Assembly (NCBI GenBank): GCA_947478395.1
Contig: CANJVR010000001.1
Span: forward strand, 480,001 to 544,000
Source: Opitutia bacterium
Lineage (GTDB): Bacteria > Verrucomicrobiota > Verrucomicrobiia > Opitutales > Opitutaceae
DNA length: 64,000 nt
Direction: 5' to 3'
Shown here: piece after piece, positions 13,676-58,116 of the stretch
Layout of the letters: the number at the start of each line of letters is the position of its first letter
Position numbering within the stretch: position 1 is the stretch's first letter
Notes under the pieces: model-generated
What the model was told of the DNA's origin: nothing
The model's input: the letters and a program-made list of their open reading frames with translations, nothing else
Database searches by the model: none
Translations under genes and position numbers: made by a program

Positions 13676-15865
13676 TCAGGCTGCAGAAACATTTATGCCC
13701 GGCAGCATCACGGGACTAATTCCGCCCGCGGCCCCCGAGTTGGTGCCATGGCGGGAAGGCGGATCGTCTGCCGCGAAGCGCTCGCCGGGTTCGATCGCAA
13801 CGATCCGGCCCTCGTCCATCCGCACAATCTGATCGGCGATCGCCAGCACCGTGGGATGATGGGCCGCGATGAGGATGGTTTTCCCTTCGTCCCGGAGCGT
13901 TTGGAGCAGCGCAAGAATGGTGGCTTCGGATGCCGGATCGAGAGCGGCCGTCGGTTCATCCAGCAGCAAAATCGGCGCGTCGACGTAAAGGGCGCGGACG
14001 AGAGCCAAGCGCTGACGTTGGCCGCCGGAAAGATTTACGCCGTTCTCGCCCAGATGAGTTAAGAATTTTTGCGGCAGCGTTTCGACGAACTCGAGAATTC
14101 CCACGTCCCGGCACAGGCGGAGCAGGCGTTCCATCTGCGGCTGCGGATCACCCGGCGCGAGGTTTTCGAGGATCGTACCCGACAACAGTACCGTCGCTTG
14201 GGGCACAACTGCGAGATGGCGACGGAGTGAATCGAGCGTGAAATACTGGACATCGATTCCGCCAAGACACACGCGGCCCTGTTCGGGGAGATAGAGTCGT
14301 TGCAGAAGCGCGAGCAGCGTGCTCTTACCGCAGCCAGAATTACCGGCGAGCACGGTGATTCGTCCGACGGGAACGGTGAGGTTGATGTCGCGCAGAGTCG
14401 CAAGTCGGCCGGCGTGATGAAACGAAACCTGTTCAAAGCACAGGTCGCACGCGTGCGCCGGGGTGAACTCAATCGTGCCGGTATTCTTTTCGAGTTCGAG
14501 GTCCATGATTTCGAAGAGCCGGTCCGTGGCGATCAGCGCCTCCTGAATCGAAGTATTGAGACCGATCAACGCAGCGAGCGGACCGGTCAAGTATCCGGCC
14601 AGCGTGTAACATGACATCAATTGCCCCGGCGTAAGGCGCGATTCGAGCACGAGCGAGGCGCCGAGCCACAACAGACCGATCAAATAGGCTTGAGTGAGCA
14701 AGGTGGCAGTGGTGCTGCATCCGAGCGACGCGATGGCCGCGCGATAGGCGGTCTTGAGCAATCGGACGAGGCGGATCTCGGTGCGCAGTTCGGCTGCCTC
14801 CTCGAGACGAAAGCGCCGGAGCGCCGGTTGAGCTTGAAGCGACTCCGTGAGCTGTGCGCTAAAATCGGCGCTGCGCTCCATCAGCTGGCGCTGGTACGTG
14901 CGGTTGCGCAGATTGACGAACCAGTACAGCAGGGCGTTCCCGGGCAGGAGGCCAAGTGAAAGCAGCGCGAGTTTCCATGAATAGAAAAACATGGCCGCGA
15001 TGGCGAAAATCAGGATGAGCGGATTGAGCAGCAGATTGACGAGGGCGTTGTTCAGGAAATTGCGGATCTTAACCGCGTCGCCGACCCGCGACGTGATTTC
15101 ACCGACGCGCATCGTATCGAAAAATGGCTGCGGCAGCCGAAGGAGGTGGCGGTAGTAGCCGAGGATAATCGCCGCATCGATGCGCTGGGCCGTGCGAAGC
15201 GATAACAGTGCTTGGAAAACCCCGAGCACCAGCCTGAACGCCAGCACCACGCCCATCGCCACACCGAGCAAATTGAGCAGCGAGTGGTTTCCATCGGGTA
15301 TGACCGAGTCCACAATTTTTTGCACATAGACCGACATGGCCAGAGCCAGGATGGTCGACAGGATGGCGCCCACCAAAGTTTGGGCGAGGACGGCATGATG
15401 CGGTTGTAGCAACTGCCAAAGGCGTCGCACCGGGGAAACTGTGGCGTCGCCGGGTTGGAAATGATCGCCGGGAGCGAGGATAATGAGCACGCCAGTCCAA
15501 TAGGATTTAAATTTTTCGTGCGACCATTTCTCCACCCGACCGACCGCCGGGTCCATCACTCGCGCGCACTTCGGCGTCCAAGCAACGAGCACCACGTAGT
15601 GCATGCGTTTATTGGCGATCAGGCAGTGCGCGATGGCAGGGCAAGGAGCATGCGGCAAAGCGGTCGCGGCACCCTTCACCGCTTTGGCGATCAGGCCGAA
15701 ATGAACCGCAGCTGCCGTCAAACCGAGCGCGGTAGAACCTTGCATGTTGGTGCCCGCCAGCTGGCGCAGCTTGGCGATCGGCACCGGCTTTCCGTAGTGA
15801 GCGGCGACGTAGCCCAGGCAGCAGGCGCCGCAGTCGGTGACATCACGTTGTTTGAAACGAGACAT
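13676..15865 (-). CDS. C39 peptidase-containing ABC transporter (double-glycine leader processing/export)
   Basis: QRDVTDCGACCL (catalytic Cys), HYVV, MDPA; transmembrane domain; Walker A GNSGCGKST, LSGGQRQR, LLLDEPT. Confidence 0.92.
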   Translation of the reverse strand: MSRFKQRDVTDCGACCLGYVAAHYGKPVPIAKLRQLAGTNMQGSTALGLTAAAVHFGLIAKAVKGAATALPHAPCPAIAHCLIANKRMHYVVLVAWTPKCARVMDPAVGRVEKWSHEKFKSYWTGVLIILAPGDHFQPGDATVSPVRRLWQLLQPHHAVLAQTLVGAILSTILALAMSVYVQKIVDSVIPDGNHSLLNLLGVAMGVVLAFRLVLGVFQALLSLRTAQRIDAAIILGYYRHLLRLPQPFFDTMRVGEITSRVGDAVKIRNFLNNALVNLLLNPLILIFAIAAMFFYSWKLALLSLGLLPGNALLYWFVNLRNRTYQRQLMERSADFSAQLTESLQAQPALRRFRLEEAAELRTEIRLVRLLKTAYRAAIASLGCSTTATLLTQAYLIGLLWLGASLVLESRLTPGQLMSCYTLAGYLTGPLAALIGLNTSIQEALIATDRLFEIMDLELEKNTGTIEFTPAHACDLCFEQVSFHHAGRLATLRDINLTVPVGRITVLAGNSGCGKSTLLALLQRLYLPEQGRVCLGGIDVQYFTLDSLRRHLAVVPQATVLLSGTILENLAPGDPQPQMERLLRLCRDVGILEFVETLPQKFLTHLGENGVNLSGGQRQRLALVRALYVDAPILLLDEPTAALDPASEATILALLQTLRDEGKTILIAAHHPTVLAIADQIVRMDEGRIVAIEPGERFAADDPPSRHGTNSGAAGGISPVMLPGINVSAA

Positions 15866-16015
15866 GTGATTTTCCGGTTTGGGTTTGGGGATCGGAGCAG
15901 ATCGAAAAAGCAGGGCACGATATCCCTAACGCGCCGTTGCGAGCCGGCTGACGCAAGGAGCGGTGCCTGACCGGCGGGTAAAGGATAACCCGCCCGACCC
16001 TCGGACGATCCGCTT

Positions 16016-16843
16016 TTACGGGCTCATCCGCGCCACACACCAGCCGTCGGGGGCTTGCCACAACCGACGAAGGACCGAACACCGGAACCACACGCCCTCC
16101 GCCGACCTACGCGGCAAGTCGACGCCTTTACGCCACGGGAAAGTATGACTGATGCGTTGGGGATCGACGCCCCAATCAGGCGGCAACTGCGAAAGCGCCT
16201 TCGCGGAAAAAATCAATGCATGGTCGGCAATCGTGCCAAGTTGGTGATAATTTAGCGCAGCAAGGTAGCTCTCATCATCCGAGCAGATCACGCAGATATC
16301 GGCGGTCGAGGTCCGCGCTTGTTTTAACTGGTACATGAAAGGCGGGGCGTACGCGGCGCGGTCGATGAATTTATACCGCGCTTTCAGGAAAGCGTTAAAC
16401 TCCCGCAGCATTTCGTCGAGCGATCCCTTGCTCAGCAGACCGGACGGCGTCGTGGGTGGCGTGAATCGGTAAATAAAATAGTCCATATCCGACAGAAACG
16501 GCTGGTTGCTGGTAACCCGGTAATCCCGATATTTTTCTTCGACGGAATAGATCCCGTTCGGACTCGTGAGCTCCGTCTTCTTTCCCAGCGGGGACACGAC
16601 AAATTTCTTCAACGGCAGATTCGACTGGCTCGTGACTTTTTTTTGCGGTGAGAAGCCGACGAACTGAAACGTCTTTGGGGCGATCGATTTATCAAAGTCC
16701 AGGTATTCGGAATACAACCGATAAAATCCGTACCCCTTCAGGGTTTTACTTTGCACCGCGACCGACTCCATTTGTTCAGCGGGCTCCGTTGCCGCGAGGC
16801 TCACCGATGCAACGATCAAAACTAAACAACAAAGATATTTCAT
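16016..16843 (-). CDS. Secreted hypothetical protein within the peptide export locus
   Basis: Signal peptide MKYLCCLVLIVASVSLAA; visibly lower GC than neighbours; no family recognised. Confidence 0.7.
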   Translation of the reverse strand: MKYLCCLVLIVASVSLAATEPAEQMESVAVQSKTLKGYGFYRLYSEYLDFDKSIAPKTFQFVGFSPQKKVTSQSNLPLKKFVVSPLGKKTELTSPNGIYSVEEKYRDYRVTSNQPFLSDMDYFIYRFTPPTTPSGLLSKGSLDEMLREFNAFLKARYKFIDRAAYAPPFMYQLKQARTSTADICVICSDDESYLAALNYHQLGTIADHALIFSAKALSQLPPDWGVDPQRISHTFPWRKGVDLPRRSAEGVWFRCSVLRRLWQAPDGWCVARMSP

Positions 16844-47638: not shown

Positions 47639-47701
47639 GCTTAGGTTACCGCGCCAACTGGGCAACCTAGCTTCGGATCTTATCCCCTCGGCGGCGAAAA
47701 A

Positions 47702-47726
47702 TGGCGGAGAGGGAGGGATTCGAACC
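47702..47726 (-). repeat. att site: 25-bp duplication of the tRNA-Ser 3' end
   Basis: TGGCGGAGAGGGAGGGATTCGAACC is identical at 47702-47726 and 57341-57365. Confidence 0.95.
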
Positions 47727-51071: not shown

Positions 51072-52126
51072 GCGGCGGGGTCTTCGTCGGGCTTGCCGGG
51101 TTTCTTGGGCGGCAAGCGCTCGGCCTTCTTCAAGCGGCGCACGTGCTCCTCGAAATCTTTTTCCACCGGCGTCAATTCCGCCCCCGCAGCAAGCTGGCGC
51201 TGGCGGTATTTCTGCCACTCCCGTGCGGCCAGTTCTTGCGCGAGCTGGGCCGAAACCTTGCCGAGCCCGGGAAGGATGTCGCGGTCGTTGACCGTGAGGA
51301 AGGCATCGAGCTTCCGGTTCCAGTCCGCCATGCGCATGGTCTTCTTCGACATGGCTTGGAGTTCGCCGAAATCGATGAACTGCGAGACGAGGCGCTCCAG
51401 GATTTCCAGCTCCTCCTTGGTGAGGTAGTTTTTGGCCACGCCCACGTCTTCACGACGCGGTTTGGGGCCCTTCCACGTCATCAGCCCGGCGTAGGGTTTT
51501 TCGGCGCTGACGCGCTCGGCGATCAACTCGGCGGCGGTGTGCCCGTGCGTCGCCCAGTGGAGCTTGTTTTGCACGCGGGCGAAGAAGTGATCCGCCTCGG
51601 CCGTCTTACGGTCGTAGTCCACGCTGGTGGAAAACAGATCGAGCACCTTTTGATAAAACACCCGCTCTTCGAGCCGGATCGCCCGGATGCGCCGGAGCAA
51701 CTCCTCGAAGTAAGGGTTGCCCTGCTTCATGCGTTCATCGTCCAAGGCAAACCCCTTGAGGATATACTCGCGCAGGGTCTTGGTCGCCCAGATGCGGAAC
51801 TGCGTGCCGCGCGGCGACTTTACCCGGTAGCCCACCGAGATGATGACATCGAGGTTGTAGAACTCGATCTTGCGCAGCACCTCGCGCCCGCCCTCGGTTT
51901 GAACTGTTGCAAATTCTGCAACAGTTCCCGCCTGCTCCAACTCCTTCTCTTCGTAAACATTACTGATGTGGCGGGAGATCACAGACTTATCACGGTCAAA
52001 CAACTCCGCCAGCTGGTTAAGGCTCAGCCACACCGTGTCGCCTTGGAGAACGACATCCACCTTCACCGCGCCGTCTTCGGAGCGGTAAAAAATGATTTGG
52101 GATTCGGGGGGCGGTTGGTCGGGCAT
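51068..52126 (-). CDS. RhuM family protein
   Basis: VWLSLNQLAELF, YNLDVIISVGYRVKS, FRIWATKTL, VQNKLHWATHGHTAAELI, AKNYL. Confidence 0.9.
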   Translation of the reverse strand: MPDQPPPESQIIFYRSEDGAVKVDVVLQGDTVWLSLNQLAELFDRDKSVISRHISNVYEEKELEQAGTVAEFATVQTEGGREVLRKIEFYNLDVIISVGYRVKSPRGTQFRIWATKTLREYILKGFALDDERMKQGNPYFEELLRRIRAIRLEERVFYQKVLDLFSTSVDYDRKTAEADHFFARVQNKLHWATHGHTAAELIAERVSAEKPYAGLMTWKGPKPRREDVGVAKNYLTKEELEILERLVSQFIDFGELQAMSKKTMRMADWNRKLDAFLTVNDRDILPGLGKVSAQLAQELAAREWQKYRQRQLAAGAELTPVEKDFEEHVRRLKKAERLPPKKPGKPDEDPAA

Positions 52127-52138
52127 GGTGGCGAGCGC

Positions 52139-54040
52139 TTACACCGTTTGGAACTGGATGCCGTGGCTTTTCATTTCGAGCACGGTGTTCGTCTTGAGCT
52201 CGTCGTTGCCGTGGAAACCCACGTCGAGGCAGAGCACGCGCTTGGGCGCGAGGGCGATGACGCCGCGCAAGCCTTCGCGGGTGAGCGTGCGGCCGAGGCA
52301 GATGACGAGTGCGCCCGCCGCGAGCAGGTGAACGGGCTGACCCGCCACGGTGCGCACCTCCACCGGCGAGCCGAGGGTGATGCCGGGGTGGCCGCACTTG
52401 AGGAGGATCTCCGCGAGGAGGTCTTCATCGCTGCGGCCGTCGTGGACGTTGTGGGCCATGAGTTCGAGCTGCCGGGCGAGCCCCTCGCCGTCGCGCGGCG
52501 CGGCCTCGCCGTCCCACACTTTGAAGTTGGACTCGTCGAGACGGTAGGCACGAAAACCCTCGGCGCGGGTGCCGCCGGTGGCGAGGTCGGCCTGGCGGCG
52601 TGCGATCACCCGGCGCACGCGCTCGCGGGTGATGTCGGCGATGGTCGGGAAATCGGTGCGCCCGGTTTTTTCGGGGAGCTGCACGAGGATGAATTTGCGG
52701 TCGCCGCCGTCCTGGCGGTTCAGCTCCAAAACGGCCTGCGCCGTCGTGCCGCTGCCGCCGAAGAAATCGAGGATCAGGTCGTCGGGTTTGCCGAGCTGAA
52801 GCAAAGTTTGAAGTAGCGCCACAGGCTTTGGCGCTTGGAACAGACCCGGCTTCACCAAATCATCGAAAACTGCCTGACCCTTCTCGGTGTGGAAGTCTCG
52901 GTCGATGAAAATGGTTTTAAGCTTTTTGCGCACGACTTCTCCATCGGCGTTAACTGGTCTTGCTTTGCGATATACCTTCCATCGCCCGTTTACCTGCCGA
53001 GCGTAAAGGTCGGCGCTTTCGGATTTCACTTTTGGCTCACCCCATGTCCAGCAACCTTCAAACCCGTCTTCCCACTTGGGCCAAATTTCAATGGGAGTTT
53101 CACTGCTGTGCTCTAACGAAACTTTGCCCGTGCTGGGGTTCGCGAAAATAGCATACCAAAGTTTGCGACGATTATGTCGGCCAAACTGACGATGCGTATT
53201 GCGCAATTCTAGAGAGCGGAAGGCTCCCTTCTCGTCGAACTCATCGAACTCATCGCGGATTTGATCGGCTGATTTCTCCACTCCTAAATCCTCTTCGAGA
53301 TACCCCTTGGAATATATGAGAACTAAATCATGGGTTCGTGCGAAATGAGGATCCAGGACACGACCTTTGGGGTTGGTTTGAACCGTTACCTGCGCCACGA
53401 AATTCTCCTCCCCGAACACCTCGTCCATGAGCAGGCGGAGGTTGTGGACCTCGTGGTCGTCGATGGAGACGAAGATGACGCCGTCGTCGCGCAGGAGATT
53501 GCGGGCGAGGGCGAGGCGCGGGTGCATGAGCTTCAGCCAATCGCTGTGGTAGCGGCCGCTGGTCTCGGCATTGGTCGAGAGCGTTTGCCCGGTGATTTCT
53601 TTGTAGTGGGCCACGCCGGCGCGGAAATCGTCGGGGTAAACGAAGTCGTTACCGGTGTTATACGGCGGGTCGATGTAGATGAGTTTCACCGCGCCGGCGT
53701 AGGCCGACTGGAGCAGTTTGAGGACGTGCAGGTTGTCGCCCTCGATGATGAGGTTTTCCGTCGCATCCCACGCGACCGAGGCGGCGGCATCGGGTCGCAA
53801 GGTGCCGTGACTGGGGGCGAGCGTCTCGCGCAGGGCCTCGGCGCGACCGGCGTAGGAGAGCCCGTAGCGTTCGGGCGAGGACGATACGGCGGCGGCGCCA
53901 ACCAGCTCGGCGAGGCGGGCGGGCACGAGTTTACCCTCGGCAAAAGCGCCGGGCAGAAGCTCGCGAAGACGAGCGAGGCGCTCGGCGGCGAGATCGGGTG
54001 AAGTGAGGGGCAGGCGCGCGGGCTTGGCAGAGTCACTCAT
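52139..54040 (-). CDS. mod: Type III R-M Mod subunit (amino-methyltransferase, probably N6-adenine)
   Basis: IEGDNL, IYIDPPYNTG, PKPV, LDFFGGSGTTA in beta-class order; upstream of res. Confidence 0.93.
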   Translation of the reverse strand: MSDSAKPARLPLTSPDLAAERLARLRELLPGAFAEGKLVPARLAELVGAAAVSSSPERYGLSYAGRAEALRETLAPSHGTLRPDAAASVAWDATENLIIEGDNLHVLKLLQSAYAGAVKLIYIDPPYNTGNDFVYPDDFRAGVAHYKEITGQTLSTNAETSGRYHSDWLKLMHPRLALARNLLRDDGVIFVSIDDHEVHNLRLLMDEVFGEENFVAQVTVQTNPKGRVLDPHFARTHDLVLIYSKGYLEEDLGVEKSADQIRDEFDEFDEKGAFRSLELRNTHRQFGRHNRRKLWYAIFANPSTGKVSLEHSSETPIEIWPKWEDGFEGCWTWGEPKVKSESADLYARQVNGRWKVYRKARPVNADGEVVRKKLKTIFIDRDFHTEKGQAVFDDLVKPGLFQAPKPVALLQTLLQLGKPDDLILDFFGGSGTTAQAVLELNRQDGGDRKFILVQLPEKTGRTDFPTIADITRERVRRVIARRQADLATGGTRAEGFRAYRLDESNFKVWDGEAAPRDGEGLARQLELMAHNVHDGRSDEDLLAEILLKCGHPGITLGSPVEVRTVAGQPVHLLAAGALVICLGRTLTREGLRGVIALAPKRVLCLDVGFHGNDELKTNTVLEMKSHGIQFQTV

Positions 54041-54144
54041 TTGTAAAAGCCGATAAAACAGACGGATGACCGAGGCCGTCAACGCTGCGCGCGGGCGAAT
54101 TTGCCGATGCATCAAAACGCGCGTGAATGGCGGTCGTTGCATCG

Positions 54145-54950
54145 CGCCGGGGGCTAGGCCCGGCGCAAGGCCGGAGCGGGAGCGCAGGCCGGGCGCTTCG
54201 CGACGGCGGCGGAGATCCGCGCTAGCGGGTCGGAGACGACGCCGCGAGGCGTAGGGGCAACCCCGACTAAGTCGGGGGCGCAGCCGCGACGTGTCGAGGC
54301 GGAGTGCCGGGGCGCGGGGGGCGGAGGAAGCGCCTTTTCACGCCGGAACGGTCGGCGTCGGCTCGGAGCGCAGCTCTTAGGCGTAGCGGAGAGGCGACGG
54401 CGTCCGTGGAGGCGTTTCGATCAGGACGTGGAATGTGGGTGACCGCGCGCAGCGCCGCCCCGGCCTGACCGGGGCGAGCGCGCGGGCACCGCGAGAGCCG
54501 GGCCATGCGGACCCGGCCGTAGGTCGCGCCAGCGACCGGAGCCGCAGGCCGAGACGTGAGCGCAGCGAACGCGAGCGGGCACGCCGACCCGCCGCCACGG
54601 CGCAGAGCGTGAGCGAACGCCGTGGTTTGCGCGGCGGTTGAGGCGAGCCCGGTAGCCTGCCGGGCGCAGCGGGGTCCCCGCCGGTCTGAACAGGACGGGC
54701 GCGACTCAGGCGTCGGGAGCGTAGCGGACGACGGCTGTGACGCGACGGCGCGGGCCCACGGAGCGCCGCTTCGCGCGGGCCACTGCACCGCGCAGGCCGT
54801 CCCCGGCGGGGTTGCACTCCAGAGGACGGAGCGGCTTGGCCCGGAGCGCGCGAGCGCGGAGGGCTGGGCGGGCCGGAGGCGCGACCACCGCGGAGGAGCA
54901 AGCAGACGGCGTGACAGGCCGGAGGCTCGGCGCAGGGCTGGCGCGACGTG
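54145..54950 (+). other. Non-coding, hairpin-dense region with strand-biased GCG(C/T)AGC mini-hairpins (putative single-strand origin/primosome site or structured RNA)
   Basis: Seven GCGYAGC on + strand in 54278-54725 and many adjacent stem-loops; overlapping ORFs are low-complexity R/A/P/G. Confidence 0.55.
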
Positions 54951-54999
54951 TGCCGCTTGGTTGATTGGGCGGTTTTTCGCGGGCGATTTCGACTCGCCG

Positions 55000-55195
55000 A
55001 ATACCACCGCGTGTCCCACCGGAATACCACCCGGTATCCCGTCCCCTAGCACCTGGGACACGAACCCGGGTGCTAGACCGGGACATATCCCGGGATCTAT
55101 TCTTCTAAAGAAGAAGGGGGAGAGCATCGCTATCGCTCTCCCCACTTCTTTCGGCGGGACAGACAAACCGCGCGGCGTCGAGGTCGGTGTCCCAG
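55000..55195 (+). repeat. Origin-like module 1: GGGAYA/TRTCCC repeats + 21-bp core + hairpin
   Basis: Core CTATTCTTCTAAAGAAGAAGG at 55097-55117; repeats at 55011, 55034, 55055, 55080, 55085, 55187. Confidence 0.8.
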
Positions 55196-55233
55196 GCGGC
55201 GGCATGGCGTGGGTTGCGCCGTGTGCGCGCCCG

Positions 55234-55380
55234 GAGTCACCTGACACTAAGCGTCACTTTTGCCGAGGTGACGCTAAGGGCGACACTAGCGACTGACACT
55301 ATTCTTCTAAAGAAGAAGGGAGCGAGCTACGCTATCGCTCGCCTCCCTTCTTTCGACGGGACGGAGCCGAGCCGCGCGCG
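55234..55380 (+). repeat. Origin-like module 2: YGACRCT repeats + 21-bp core + hairpin
   Basis: Core at 55299-55319; repeats at 55242, 55250 (inverted), 55269, 55281, 55294. Confidence 0.8.
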
Positions 55381-55816
55381 TCGTGCGGAGTGGTTGGCTA
55401 CGTTGTGGCGCGAGGTGGCGCGGCGCGACGTGGTTGGCCTTGGGTAACCCACGAAGGACGGCGAGGCGGCGTGGGTGACGAAACGAGGTAGGGCGCAAAC
55501 TGCACCTGTCTTCACCTGCTTGCATCTAGCTACTCAATAGCGTTTTGCGGGCGATTTAAGCCGTCGATTTCGAGGCGGGCGGCGTTGCGGCAACCATGTA
55601 TCCCCTGCCTCCTTTGCGTGGCGTAAAACGAACGCGCGGGCCATTGGGCGCGATTCTGGAAGCCGGGTTGCGGGCGCGATTCGTTGCGTCGGTTTGAGGG
55701 TTGGGTGGCAGGCGTCGCGGTGCACCACGGCGGGTGCGTGGTGGGGTTTGCGCGGTGTGTGCGACGGGACGCGGCATGGGGGCGGCGTGGCCTGGCTGGG
55801 TCATGAACCACGGCGG

Positions 55817-56022
55817 CGCGCGCGGCTTTTCCGTTTGCCCGTCGAAAGAAGGTGGGGGAGGAGCAAAGCGATCTCCTCCCCACCTTCTTCTTTAGAAGAA
55901 TAGCACCAGGTGCTGCACCAGTCTTAGCACCACCCCCATTTCACTGGTGCTTAGAACTGGGGTGGTGCCGGGAAAAACCACCTCGGCGCCACCCTGGTGC
56001 TCGCGGTGGTGCCGGGTGGCGC
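55817..56022 (-). repeat. Origin-like module 3 (inverted): TGGTGC/GCACCA repeats + 21-bp core + hairpin
   Basis: Reverse-complement core at 55883-55903; repeats at 55903, 55915, 55927, 55945, 55963, 55995, 56007. Confidence 0.8.
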
Positions 56023-56028
56023 GGGAGG

Positions 56029-57276
56029 TCACGCCGCCCGCGAAAGCGGCGCGGTTTCGGCAGAGCGGTCACACGTGACCGGATCGACGTGGGCGGCTGC
56101 GGGTTGGACGTGCATGGCGGGCGCGGTCGAGGCGGGGACGATGTTGAAAAACGCCTCGGCTTCGGCGGGCGTTTTTAGGTCGAGGTAGTGTTTGCGGATG
56201 ATCGACTCGGAGTTGCCCGCCTGGAGCGCGGCCTCGCCCATCGAACGATACTTGGCGACGTGCATCGAGATGAACGTGTGCCGCATGATGTCGTGCGAGA
56301 GCGTGAACTTTTCCGCGACGGCGGCGCGGGTGTGTTGCAGGTTGGCGGGGATGATCGGGAAGCGGTCGAGCGGGTAAGCGCGGAGCCACGCGGCGAGGTT
56401 GGGCTGGATGGTGACGGCGCGTTTCATGCGGACTTTCGAGACCTCGGGTTCGATGAGGATGACGCCGGTATCAAGGCGCACGTGTTCGGGGCGGAGTTTG
56501 AGGATCTCCCCCGTGCGCACGCAGGGGCGGATTCCTGCGAAGAGGGCGAGGGCGAAGAACGGCACGAGCGAGCCGCCGTCGATCTGTTCAACGTGGTGCA
56601 TGAGTGCGGTGGCTTGCGCGGCGCTGAGCGTGGTCGCGGAGCCGCGCCGGTGGGCGATGCGGAGGTGGGGGACTTTTTCGAGGGGGTTGGCGGCGACCCA
56701 GTCTTGGCAGAACGCGAATTTGAAGAACGTGAAGAGCACGCCGCGACGGTTGTTAAACGTCTTGGGCTTCGGGTTGCCCAGCTGGCAATGCGCGGCAAGG
56801 GCTTCGCGGGAGAGCGTGGAGAGCGGCTGGCCGGGGAAGGCGGAGACGAGGTTTTCCAGGCGGATGCGGATGTCCTTGAGTTGGCAGGTGGAGAGCATGC
56901 CTTGCGCCTCCTCTTTTTTCTTGGACGCGAGATAAGCGGTGACGGCGGCATCGACGGTGATCTCGCGCTCGGGGGCGCGGTAGTTGGCGAGGGCGTAGTC
57001 GAGGTAGAACGCGAGGGGCTTGGGCGCGTCGGCGAGGCGGCGAAACGCGGCCTCGGATTGGCGGAGCTGGTCGTCGGTGAGGAAGGTGGAGGCGCTGCGG
57101 ACGTTGCTGGCGGCTTGCGCGGCCTTGGCTTCGAGGGCGGCGCGTTCGGCTCCGGCCTCCTCGCGGGTTTTGAAGTTCCGGCGGATGCGGAGGCCGTGAA
57201 GACGGCCATCGACTCGCCAAGAGGTGACGCCGTTGCGGTTGAGAAACCGGGTAACGGTGAATGCGGACTGCGGCAT
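56029..57276 (-). CDS. int: Tyrosine recombinase / site-specific integrase
   Basis: AGIRP (R), SKV (K), HDIMRHT (HxxR), KHY (Y); N-terminal arm-binding-like domain; next to the tRNA att. Confidence 0.9.
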   Translation of the reverse strand: MPQSAFTVTRFLNRNGVTSWRVDGRLHGLRIRRNFKTREEAGAERAALEAKAAQAASNVRSASTFLTDDQLRQSEAAFRRLADAPKPLAFYLDYALANYRAPEREITVDAAVTAYLASKKKEEAQGMLSTCQLKDIRIRLENLVSAFPGQPLSTLSREALAAHCQLGNPKPKTFNNRRGVLFTFFKFAFCQDWVAANPLEKVPHLRIAHRRGSATTLSAAQATALMHHVEQIDGGSLVPFFALALFAGIRPCVRTGEILKLRPEHVRLDTGVILIEPEVSKVRMKRAVTIQPNLAAWLRAYPLDRFPIIPANLQHTRAAVAEKFTLSHDIMRHTFISMHVAKYRSMGEAALQAGNSESIIRKHYLDLKTPAEAEAFFNIVPASTAPAMHVQPAAAHVDPVTCDRSAETAPLSRAA

Positions 57277-57315
57277 GTGTTAGGTTGCCACGTCAACTGG
57301 GCAACCTAGCGGGCG

Positions 57316-57339
57316 AAAACTCCTCGTCAGAGGAGAAAA
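57316..57339 (-). terminator. Short hairpin with T-run downstream of tRNA-Ser, supplied by the island
   Basis: Minus strand CTCCTC-TGAC-GAGGAG-TTTT. Confidence 0.5.
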
Positions 57340-57340
57340 C

Positions 57341-57430
57341 TGGCGGAGAGGGAGGGATTCGAACCCCCGGTGACCTTTCGGCCACACCTGATTTCGAGTC
57401 AGGCGCGTTAGACCACTCTGCCACCTCTCC
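57341..57430 (-). tRNA. tRNA-Ser (CGA)
   Basis: GGAGAGG...CCTGA-CT-CGA-AA-TCAGG anticodon arm, long variable arm, GGTTCGAATCC T-arm, encoded CCA; 90 nt. Confidence 0.97.
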
Positions 57431-57702
57431 GGCACGCGAACGCGGCAACGTAGGCCACACCCTCGAAAACGGAAGCCGAAAATCAGCCGCCACCTACAAC
57501 TCCCCTATTTGAGTCCAGTCAGGGATACGTCGGCGGCCCATCGCGGATTACCGGCCGCGAGAGGACCTGCAAAACGAGATCACAATCGGAAACGGCGTGT
57601 AAACTGAATGTCCGACCGGAGTGTAACGTATCACGCTAAACTCGACGATCGCAGCGAAAGCAGCGGACACCCTGGGCTCACGCCAAAGATGAGAAACGCG
57701 AC

Positions 57703-58116
57703 TCAAAGGTTCTCGTCGTCCCCGCGACCGGCCTCGGTCTGATTGGCCGGGAGATGATGGGGCAGAACCAAATAATAATTCATCAGCCACCAGCTGCGGG
57801 ACGAACGGTAAAATAAAATCGGAAAAACGATCGCCCCTACGCCAGCGAGGATGGTCGCACCGCGGCCGGAGATGACGCCGGAAAGATAGCACACGAGCAC
57901 CGGCACCAAAAATCCGGCGATCGTCACACCGTAATTTAACGACATCGAGCCGAGGAAAAACCCCTCGTCGTTCGCGCGCTCGATCTTGAGACCACACTCA
58001 CCACATTCACGGTTCACTTGGAAAAGAGTGTCTTCCTTGAAGAGGGTGCGCGCCCCACAGTTGGGGCAACGATTGGTGAGACCTCGGGTGATAATTTGGC
58101 CACGCGTGACTTTCAT
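57703..58116 (-). CDS. DUF983 family membrane protein
   Basis: RCPNCG and CGECG Cys pairs followed by two TM segments. Confidence 0.8.
   Translation of the reverse strand: MKVTRGQIITRGLTNRCPNCGARTLFKEDTLFQVNRECGECGLKIERANDEGFFLGSMSLNYGVTIAGFLVPVLVCYLSGVISGRGATILAGVGAIVFPILFYRSSRSWWLMNYYLVLPHHLPANQTEAGRGDDENL

Follow-up and report, generated by a model that had tools for sequence, protein, structure and literature searches.

Introduction

The question raised by this locus is what a strongly folding, GC-rich interval of about 0.8 kb represents on an integrated island. The interval lies in a 64,000-nt stretch from an Opitutia bacterium of the family Opitutaceae (contig CANJVR010000001.1, positions 480,001 to 544,000 of the forward strand), referred to here as the window; coordinates are those of the window unless another locus is named. 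A first-pass annotation had read positions 54145-54950 as an array of GCGYAGC mini-hairpins that folds as single-stranded DNA (ssDNA), as a single-strand origin (sso), a primosome assembly site (pas), or an ssDNA promoter, and had offered a large non-coding RNA (ncRNA) as the alternative. Comparison with homologous loci revealed that the region is a full-length copy of a conserved element and not a loose hairpin array. As judged from sequence, positions 54140-54968 of the + strand are best explained as a complete copy of a conserved, strand-specifically folded element carried on mobile DNA of the Opitutaceae, which is likely a large structured ncRNA. The original observation is thus confirmed, its main interpretation appears weakened, and the ncRNA alternative appears favoured but unproven.

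A conserved family in the Opitutaceae

Blastn against relatives returned collinear blocks in other genomes of the same family, Opitutaceae, and collinear full-length homologues of 566-845 nt were recovered from 16 further loci. Both ends of the family are defined, by a hairpin at the 5' end and a stem-loop at the 3' end; each further full copy starts with the same hairpin, or with compensated variants of it, and ends with the same stem-loop. Family members are about 570-850 nt long, and the window copy measures ~830 nt. Collinear homologues, profile hidden Markov models (HMMs), and covariation place the unit at ~54140 to 54968 (+), with a leader on the + strand from 54096 and a tail to ~54985; the extent first given, 54145-54950, falls short at both ends.

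Distribution was assessed on samples, where absence means that the element was not found in the genomes searched. With the whole element as query, matches appeared in 90 of 401 sampled Opitutaceae genomes, covering 32 of 63 genera (E <= 1e-5), and a phylum-wide sample gave matches in 9 of 35 Opitutaceae genomes versus none of 365 genomes from 70 other families. Neither 72,556 plasmids nor 50,697 phage records gave a match to the whole element in distant-mode blastn, and a degenerate pattern of the 3' module found none in the IMG/VR viral contigs. The window's own genome holds exactly one copy (54138-54957 with profile HMMs of both halves, in agreement with blastn), while other genomes hold one to five matches. 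The element is patchy and restricted to one family, its carriers are freshwater Opitutaceae, and it resides on mobile DNA.

Further loci were retrieved from a species-representative genome collection with an exact 19-base word of the 3' end as bait. The word occurred in 76 stretches, 44 of which also carried the upstream part of the module according to a script criterion. Verrucomicrobiota names (Opitutaceae, Lacunisphaera, Rariglobus, Opitutus, and others) are attached to 42 of the 44, and the other two are labelled only "bacterium". The other 32 stretches are mostly chance matches in unrelated high-GC taxa, together with a few Verrucomicrobiota-named ones that are likely more truncated copies. 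Truncation is one-sided: 25 5' ends were counted versus 110 3' ends among the loci retrieved, a set biased by the 3' bait, and the same 3'-end skew was seen with the whole element as query.

The element matches no described RNA family. An Rfam 15 cmscan search (E up to 1) of positions 52000-58000 returned only a tRNA and chance matches outside the element, and the same search of nine homologous loci returned one tRNA and nothing else; the families covered include GOLLD, ROOL, OLE, HEARO, raiA, group I and II introns, RNase P, and tmRNA. Full-text searches of the literature on structured RNA of Opitutaceae and Verrucomicrobia and on ncRNA associated with Rhs, immunity, or integrase genes found no description of the element, and a passage search of PMC11109978 found no mention of Opitutaceae, Verrucomicrobia, or Rhs.

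Covariation and the folding strand

Covariation across homologues bears out the folding that had been suspected. Consensus folds were computed with RNAalifold on MAFFT alignments. For the 3' half (alignment A2, 28 sequences), 86 pairs were predicted and 87.2% of their cells are paired, versus 34-47% when slid by 1-3 columns; 44 pairs show changes on both sides, and none of 500 shuffles scored as high. The 5' half (alignment A4, 14 sequences) behaves alike, with 106 pairs, 88.8% of cells paired versus 32-43% after sliding by 1-3 columns, 38 both-side changes, and again none of 500 shuffles as high. Altogether, 192 predicted pairs are kept; both sides have changed in 82 of them, and some are long-range. 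The fold comprises about 39 helices, one of which covaries and bridges ~130 nt, while the reach of other, predicted ones is 290-400 nt. Little covariation was seen in two very long-range predictions (54190-54193 / 54588-54591 and 54668-54671 / 54954-54957).

The pairs also disclose which strand folds. Among A2 pairs, 132 cells are G-U versus 38 that are A-C, an excess that identifies the + strand as the one that folds; in the terminal stem, a U-G pair is kept in 25 of 28 sequences. Consensus-fold energies for three alignments are lower on the + than on the - strand (-387 vs -343, -171 vs -155, and -230 vs -216), and the - strand of the window copy folds worse than the + strand under both RNA and DNA parameters (20 shuffles). 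Unpaired columns of A2 are 62% purine. Single-strand folding of the + strand, as proposed at the outset, is supported by both the covariation and the G-U excess over A-C.

Motif words, composition, and folding energy

The seven GCGYAGC words that had drawn attention to the region (54278, 54368, 54381, 54447, 54560, 54664, and 54719; together 54278..54725) all lie on the + strand, and none occurs on the - strand within 54145-54950, exactly as had been reported. Their number is well above expectation: 7 versus 0.92 +/- 0.94, a count reached by none of 2000 dinucleotide-preserving shuffles of the 806-nt region. For the - strand, 0.40 occurrences are expected and 1324 of the 2000 shuffles have none, which makes the zero count there unremarkable. 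Enrichment across the entire window is mild (57 vs 42.9 +/- 6.0).

All five stems listed at first sight are present on the + strand where they had been placed: CCCCGAC-TAA-GTCGGGG at 54261, CGCCCCGG/CCGGGGCG at 54456-54476, GGTCGC-GCCA-GCGACC at 54522, CCACGGCG/CGCCGTGG at 54595-54625, and GCCCGG/CCGGGC at 54647-54665. What did not survive is the idea of a mini-hairpin array, as in the family consensus fold just one of the seven words (54719-54725) forms a GC-GNA-GC tip. The word at 54560 falls in a variable unpaired stretch, and the other five lie within other helices or junctions. Equivalent hairpin tips in homologues are GNA triloops or GNRA tetraloops, set between purine-rich GNA/GNA internal loops. 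The 11-mer GAGCGCAGCGA had been likened to the ColE1/pBR322 primosome assembly region, a resemblance that is putative.

With 361 G, 261 C, 115 A, and 69 T, the + strand of 54145-54950 is rich in purines, and the G+C content reaches 77%. Any shuffle folds strongly because the G+C content is so high, and the gain in folding energy over 80 shuffles, though present, is modest: RNA parameters give z = -1.79, with 3 shuffles as low, and DNA parameters give z = -2.89, with none.

Parts of the element

A conserved leader (54096..54143, +) precedes the 5' hairpin and could harbor a promoter or a transcript start. It aligns closely with L090, in a sister island of genome G166, and with L004, a remnant in another genome of the genus (G004), while the sequence upstream of ~54095 differs among the three. 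The 5' hairpin, GCGCCGGG-GGCTAGG-CCCGGCGC (54144..54166, +), is helix 1 of A4, with 8 pairs, 4 of them changed on both sides, and 95.5% of cells paired. The 5' multi-helix domain follows (54190..54591, +; A4 helices 3-20). Its predicted closing helix, 54190-54193 / 54588-54591, is weakly supported, with 1 pair changed on both sides. Inside the domain, 5 pairs covary in the helix 54348-54364/54391-54407 and 8 in the helix 54438-54450/54478-54490.

Alignment A2 and a coverage histogram revealed that the 3' half (54620..54968, +) is the part most often kept in truncated copies. It includes a junction domain (54676..54811, +) closed by helix 6 of A2, 54676-54684 / 54803-54811 (CCCCGCCGG / CCGGCGGGG). 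This helix is the clearest case of covariation: 6 of its 9 pairs are changed on both sides, and the other sequence class reads GGGCCGGGC / GCCCGGCCC. A lake-metagenome contig from run X9 joins 54668 to 54806, which indicates a natural variant without the 137-nt junction domain (54669-54805). Further downstream, an insertion of ~55 nt with extra hairpins (54834..54888, +) is absent in most family members, being a gap in most rows of alignments A1 and A2; metagenome contig X19 omits the same positions and has 8 other letters instead.

The terminal stem-loop, or 3' module (54902..54953, +; A2 helices 17-18), is the most widely conserved piece of the element. Its conserved stem contains 1x1 purine mismatches and the U-G pair noted above, and its tip varies in length from 5 to ~40 nt. 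A conserved tail, TTGGnTnATTG... (54969..54985, +), closes the unit, and similarity among copies stops there.

The element does not encode a protein. Two open reading frames (ORFs) overlapping it, 54267-55247 (-) and 54622-55296 (+), match no Pfam family. A small peptide starting at the GTG of GTGACAG was also considered and rejected, as conserved letters fall in different frames between copies; the conserved flanks change frame because the terminal tip varies in length. Close variants in lake metagenomes differ by many 1-nt indels.

The island in the window

The element is located in mobile DNA, which in the window is an island at a tRNA-Ser gene. The 3' part of tRNA-Ser(CGA), 57335-57365, is repeated at 47696-47726 (31 nt, 97% identical), and this pair of repeats delimits a 9.6-kb island at ~47.7-57.3 kb whose integration site is the tRNA gene (57341..57430, -), 2.4 kb from the element. 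A second 31-nt repeat was observed at 47641-47671 and 57280-57310. A small ORF comes first on the - strand of the island. Next are the genes of a Type III restriction-modification system, res for the restriction enzyme and mod for the methylase (52139..54040, -; PF01555, E = 8.5e-35), with a RhuM-family gene between them; mod diverges from the element. The ORF as listed extends to 54142; the sequence and the element leader suggest that the methylase likely starts at ATG 54040-54038. Beyond it follow the element on the + strand, ~1 kb with repeat modules, and a tyrosine integrase ~1 kb past the element's 3' end (56029..57276, -; phrog_1 integrase, E = 3.2e-21, with a weak PF00589 match).

Neither an XRE gene nor a toxin cassette accompanies the window copy, yet it keeps every domain. 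A Pfam search of the island ORFs found no Rep, relaxase, or primase in the 9.6 kb, so the earlier proposal of an ssDNA stage in the island life cycle finds no partner there in the form of a rolling-circle Rep or a relaxase. Between element and integrase lie three related modules of ~85 nt (55097-55180, 55299-55383, and 55819-55903, -). A tie of the element to these modules (55000-56022) was considered and dropped, as they recur only in the sister island (L077/L090) and beside no other copy.

XRE-primase-integrase elements and Rhs cassettes in other loci

Elsewhere, the element lies behind an XRE gene and beside a primase and a Xer-like integrase. The XRE stop codon precedes the 5' hairpin by 8-50 nt on the same strand in L031, L040, L045 (twice), L099/L125, and L103/L119. 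L125 illustrates the arrangement. Along the element strand, a 5'-truncated copy comes first, and next to it lies an oppositely oriented orphan Rhs C-terminal (Rhs-CT) toxin piece. Two enzymes follow: a tyrosine integrase of the Xer-like type, with PF00589 and SAM-like N-terminal domains, and a primase of 1044 aa that combines a CHC2 zinc ribbon, a DnaG core, and Toprim. Next is an XRE helix-turn-helix gene, which lies on the element strand. The full element starts ~30 nt after the XRE gene, and behind it come a convergent small gene, presumably an immunity gene, and the C-terminal end of a resident Rhs gene.

L119 has the same order, and its two copies share the last ~270 nt (alignment A3, 80% identical overall). 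In both loci, 3' parts of the element form direct repeats around an XRE-primase-integrase-orphan Rhs-CT element. These are small integrative elements (L125:7134-12945 and L119:10562-17863), and their orphan Rhs piece starts at the conserved core end. This arrangement suggests that elements of this type ferry toxin tips between Rhs loci. A 2078-aa ORF of L119 is false; it results from frame errors and a ~1.4-kb run of A (15265-16631), probably an assembly or gap artefact.

Across the loci searched, tblastn detected XRE in 12, the primase in 10, this type of integrase in 6, and Rhs C-terminal pieces in 29-30, and it detected none of the four in the window. The relation to Rhs genes is directional. 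Among 46 non-identical 3' ends with at least 1.5 kb of downstream sequence, tblastn placed an oppositely oriented Rhs core end within 3 kb downstream of 16 (62-1638 nt, mostly ~1-1.2 kb). No core end lies downstream on the same strand (0 of 46), and none lies within 3 kb upstream (0 of 31).

The primase occurs in at least 34 of the 401 Opitutaceae genomes, 14 of which also have the element by comparison of lists. Among five further XRE-primase regions with at least 2 kb of downstream sequence, one has the element, in a diverged copy. An essential role of the element in XRE-primase elements was therefore rejected, because most of those checked lack it.

Several other neighbours were observed. 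At L126:575-4137, an RCC1-repeat / PT-HINT polymorphic toxin and a SUKH-1 immunity gene are bordered by truncated element copies on both sides. At L127:1165-3933, a TrwC-type relaxase and a ParA-like gene lie ~3 kb from a partial copy and an AHH-nuclease Rhs toxin, which indicates that the element also occurs near conjugative or mobilisable DNA. A tRNA gene (L109:1144-1215) lies ~140 nt upstream of a full copy on the same strand. Short-motif arrays (AACAAAC...GGCCAGACCCCTTCGGCTCGG and variants) abut the cut 5' edge of truncated copies at varying element positions (L007, L008, L010/L053, L042, L062, L119:18110-18170, and L123:9815-9860); these resemble the terminus of some other mobile or recombination unit. 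Seven of the 44 loci (L003, L009, L016, L062, L065, L074, and L083) are adjoined upstream, on the opposite strand, by a gene for a RAYT-like Y1 (HUH) transposase whose C-terminal extension is long. The L031 copy is interrupted, at positions ~390-720 of the element, by a lower-GC insertion whose end resembles the 3' end of a RAYT-like Y1 transposase gene.

RNA or folded DNA

Several features would be expected of an RNA. Its size, multi-way junctions that covary, numerous G-U pairs of which some are conserved, a wealth of purines at unpaired positions, and the GNRA and GNA tips all point in this direction, as do the constant same-strand site behind the XRE stop codon and the retention of the complete fold in an island that lacks primase, Rep, and relaxase. 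When trans-acting and cis-acting modes are taken together, an RNA function of one kind or the other appears quite probable.

A number of observations weigh against this reading. No RNA run is listed as carrying the stretch. Two libraries labelled RNA-Seq and flagged as probably DNA, X19 and X20, hold only short contigs, from relatives at 85-95% identity, plus one 165-nt contig with 99% identity over 54854-54967, and count neither for nor against an RNA; the X20 contig match stops at 54967. A scan found no sigma-70 consensus promoter, and no convincing terminator was found at the element's 3' end. The folding energy lies further from shuffles with DNA than with RNA parameters, and GC-GNA-GC tips are very stable DNA mini-hairpins that occur in phage single-strand origins. 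A Xer-like integrase nearby and a position at cassette boundaries are reminiscent of recombination sites made of folded DNA, most XRE-primase elements checked lack the element, and the window's island has a different integrase and a tRNA as its attachment site. In addition, individual helices may be wrong, because the folds derive from RNAalifold on MAFFT alignments. A large ncRNA, as predicted here, accounts for the data better than ssDNA does, with the somewhat stronger DNA-parameter z-score as a reservation.

The leading rival, which we regard as unlikely, is that the element functions as folded ssDNA exposed in replication or transfer, either as a complex initiation signal for a DnaG-type primase or as a recombination site for a Xer-like integrase in the manner of attC or CTX attP. 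It would account for the strand-specific folding, the enrichment of GCGYAGC, the DNA-parameter folding energy that no shuffle equals, and the neighbourhood in other loci of a zinc-ribbon/Toprim primase and a Xer-like tyrosine integrase, with a TrwC relaxase in one (L127). Single-strand origins such as ssoA of rolling-circle plasmids, the G4 and phiX174 complementary-strand origins, ColE1 pas, and F plasmid Frpo likewise fold from one strand according to orientation and have GC-GNA-GC-type tips, and a DnaG-type primase lies near the element in some loci. Known ssDNA signals are ~60-330 nt long, whereas the element is 570-850 nt, or 3-10 times longer than single-strand origins, and has about 39 helices with covarying multi-way junctions and long-span helices instead of compact local hairpins. 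The rarity of mini-hairpins among the GCGYAGC words, the conserved U-G pair and 132 G-U cells, the lack of Rep and relaxase in the window's island, and the many primase elements without a copy also speak against it. The initial sso/pas or ssDNA promoter interpretation is thus not upheld for a structure of ~830 nt.

The recombination-site variant of the ssDNA explanation draws on integron attC sites, which are 57-141 nt long and possess R''/R' boxes (RYYYAAC ... GTTRRRY) and extrahelical bases. As in attC, the folded strand is antisense to the genes of the adjoining toxin-immunity cassettes, the irregular conserved stem has a variable tip, a Xer-like integrase is near, and truncated copies mark cassette ends. 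Unlike attC, the 3' module has no R-box-like GTTRRRY/RYYYAAC pair by eye, its mismatches are symmetric 1x1 purine pairs instead of extrahelical bases, its stem-loop ends a much larger conserved fold, and no IntI-type integrase is shown.

An RNA acting in cis seems still less probable. It could be a long structured 3' untranslated region of XRE, or the start of an antisense transcript that controls a convergent immunity-toxin cassette and would run towards the integrase in the window. The tight same-strand spacing of XRE and element, the lack of a terminator-like site at the 3' end, and the convergent immunity and Rhs-CT cassettes behind 16 of 46 3' ends would agree with such a role. Against it, the window copy keeps every domain without either partner, 30 of the 46 3' ends have no Rhs core end behind them, and the conserved folding is more elaborate than an antisense start or a 3' untranslated region would need.

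Lastly, a double-stranded DNA repeat whose structure has no function might explain the truncated copies, their frequent contig-end positions, the direct repeats around integrated elements, and the RAYT-like neighbours; it could be an attachment site, a selfish repeat of the MITE/REP kind, or a homology arm through which toxin cassettes are exchanged. This reading is highly improbable, as 82 compensatory pairs and the excess of G-U over A-C require that selection act on one strand in its folded form. MITE/REP-RAYT repeats are short and occur in many copies per genome, unlike a 570-850-nt element found once in the window's genome and with one to five matches in others, and no terminal inverted repeats or target duplications were noticed, although no systematic search was made.

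Comparison with large ornate RNAs and integration targets

If the element is a large ncRNA, as we favour, it is closest in kind to the large ornate RNAs GOLLD, ROOL, and OLE. GOLLD and ROOL are associated with prophages and tRNAs. The element resembles these three in size class (~0.6-0.85 kb, beyond 500 nt), in its many conserved and covarying helices, in its patchy, accessory distribution, in its carriage on mobile DNA, and in the nearness of tRNA genes (2.4 kb in the window and ~140 nt in L109), and its neighbours do not reveal its function. It differs from them in matching no Rfam 15 model, in its phylum (Verrucomicrobiota, Opitutaceae), in its 77% G+C content, and in a constant 3' stem-loop that survives in truncated relics beside Rhs toxin cassettes; to our knowledge, such relics are not known for GOLLD, ROOL, or OLE. 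PMC12286853 reports that GOLLD, ROOL, and OLE form homo-oligomeric RNA-only complexes.

A second comparison is with tRNA and tmRNA genes as integration targets, for in L125 and L119 the 3' part of a structured gene is found twice around a tyrosine-integrase element. The order here is partial copy, element, and full copy, and the element is accessory instead of a core gene; this order implies that the full gene travels with the mobile element and is not chromosomal. The window's island itself uses a real tRNA-Ser, and its flanking repeats derive from that gene.

ColE1 RNA II, the replication primer, is likewise long, G-rich, and structured, and the predicted transcript of the window copy would lie beside repeat modules. 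These modules accompany the element only in the sister island, and no antisense partner like RNA I and no origin is shown.

A possible role in toxin cassette exchange

In the mechanism that we propose, the element would be made as RNA, in other loci co-transcribed with the XRE gene or starting just after it, and in the window starting from the conserved leader at 54096-54143. It may serve the mobile element in trans as an accessory cargo RNA, like the large ornate RNAs of phages and prophages. The region of the terminal stem-loop could then be used for recombination with a resident copy or relic, and the outcome would be a full copy beside the resident cassette and a relic beside the incoming orphan cassette, which is the order found in L125 and L119. 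This course would connect features that were observed directly, namely the strand-specific fold, mobile carriage, one-sided truncation, 3'-part repeats around two elements, and the directional link to cassettes.

The 3' domain probably doubles as a recombination or attachment site. Such a role would explain why 5'-truncated copies have a constant 3' end, why 3' parts form direct repeats around two integrated elements, and why the 3' end faces immunity and Rhs-toxin cassettes. In the window, only the RNA role would apply, because the island uses a tRNA gene instead. More speculatively, we raise the tentative possibility that the element represents an undescribed class of large ornate RNA on integrative elements whose own 3' stem-loop is the recombination target by which primase/integrase elements insert orphan Rhs cassettes behind resident toxin genes; polymorphic toxin cassettes would then be exchanged under the direction of the RNA gene itself, with 5'-truncated relics left in place.

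Significance

Few bacterial ncRNAs exceed 500 nt and have complex conserved folds, and most of those that do have proved mechanistically remarkable; they include RNAs of the ribosome, RNase P, group I and II introns, and lately GOLLD, ROOL, and OLE. The element is a candidate for a new class from a poorly studied phylum, and its covariation is good enough for the design of constructs for probing or cryo-EM. For annotation, it accounts for a 0.8-kb "empty" GC-rich gap and for many contig breaks in Opitutaceae assemblies. For the biology of the family, its directional association with polymorphic toxin-immunity cassettes, Rhs among them, and with small primase-integrase elements bearing orphan toxin tips provides a testable route by which toxin repertoires may be exchanged.

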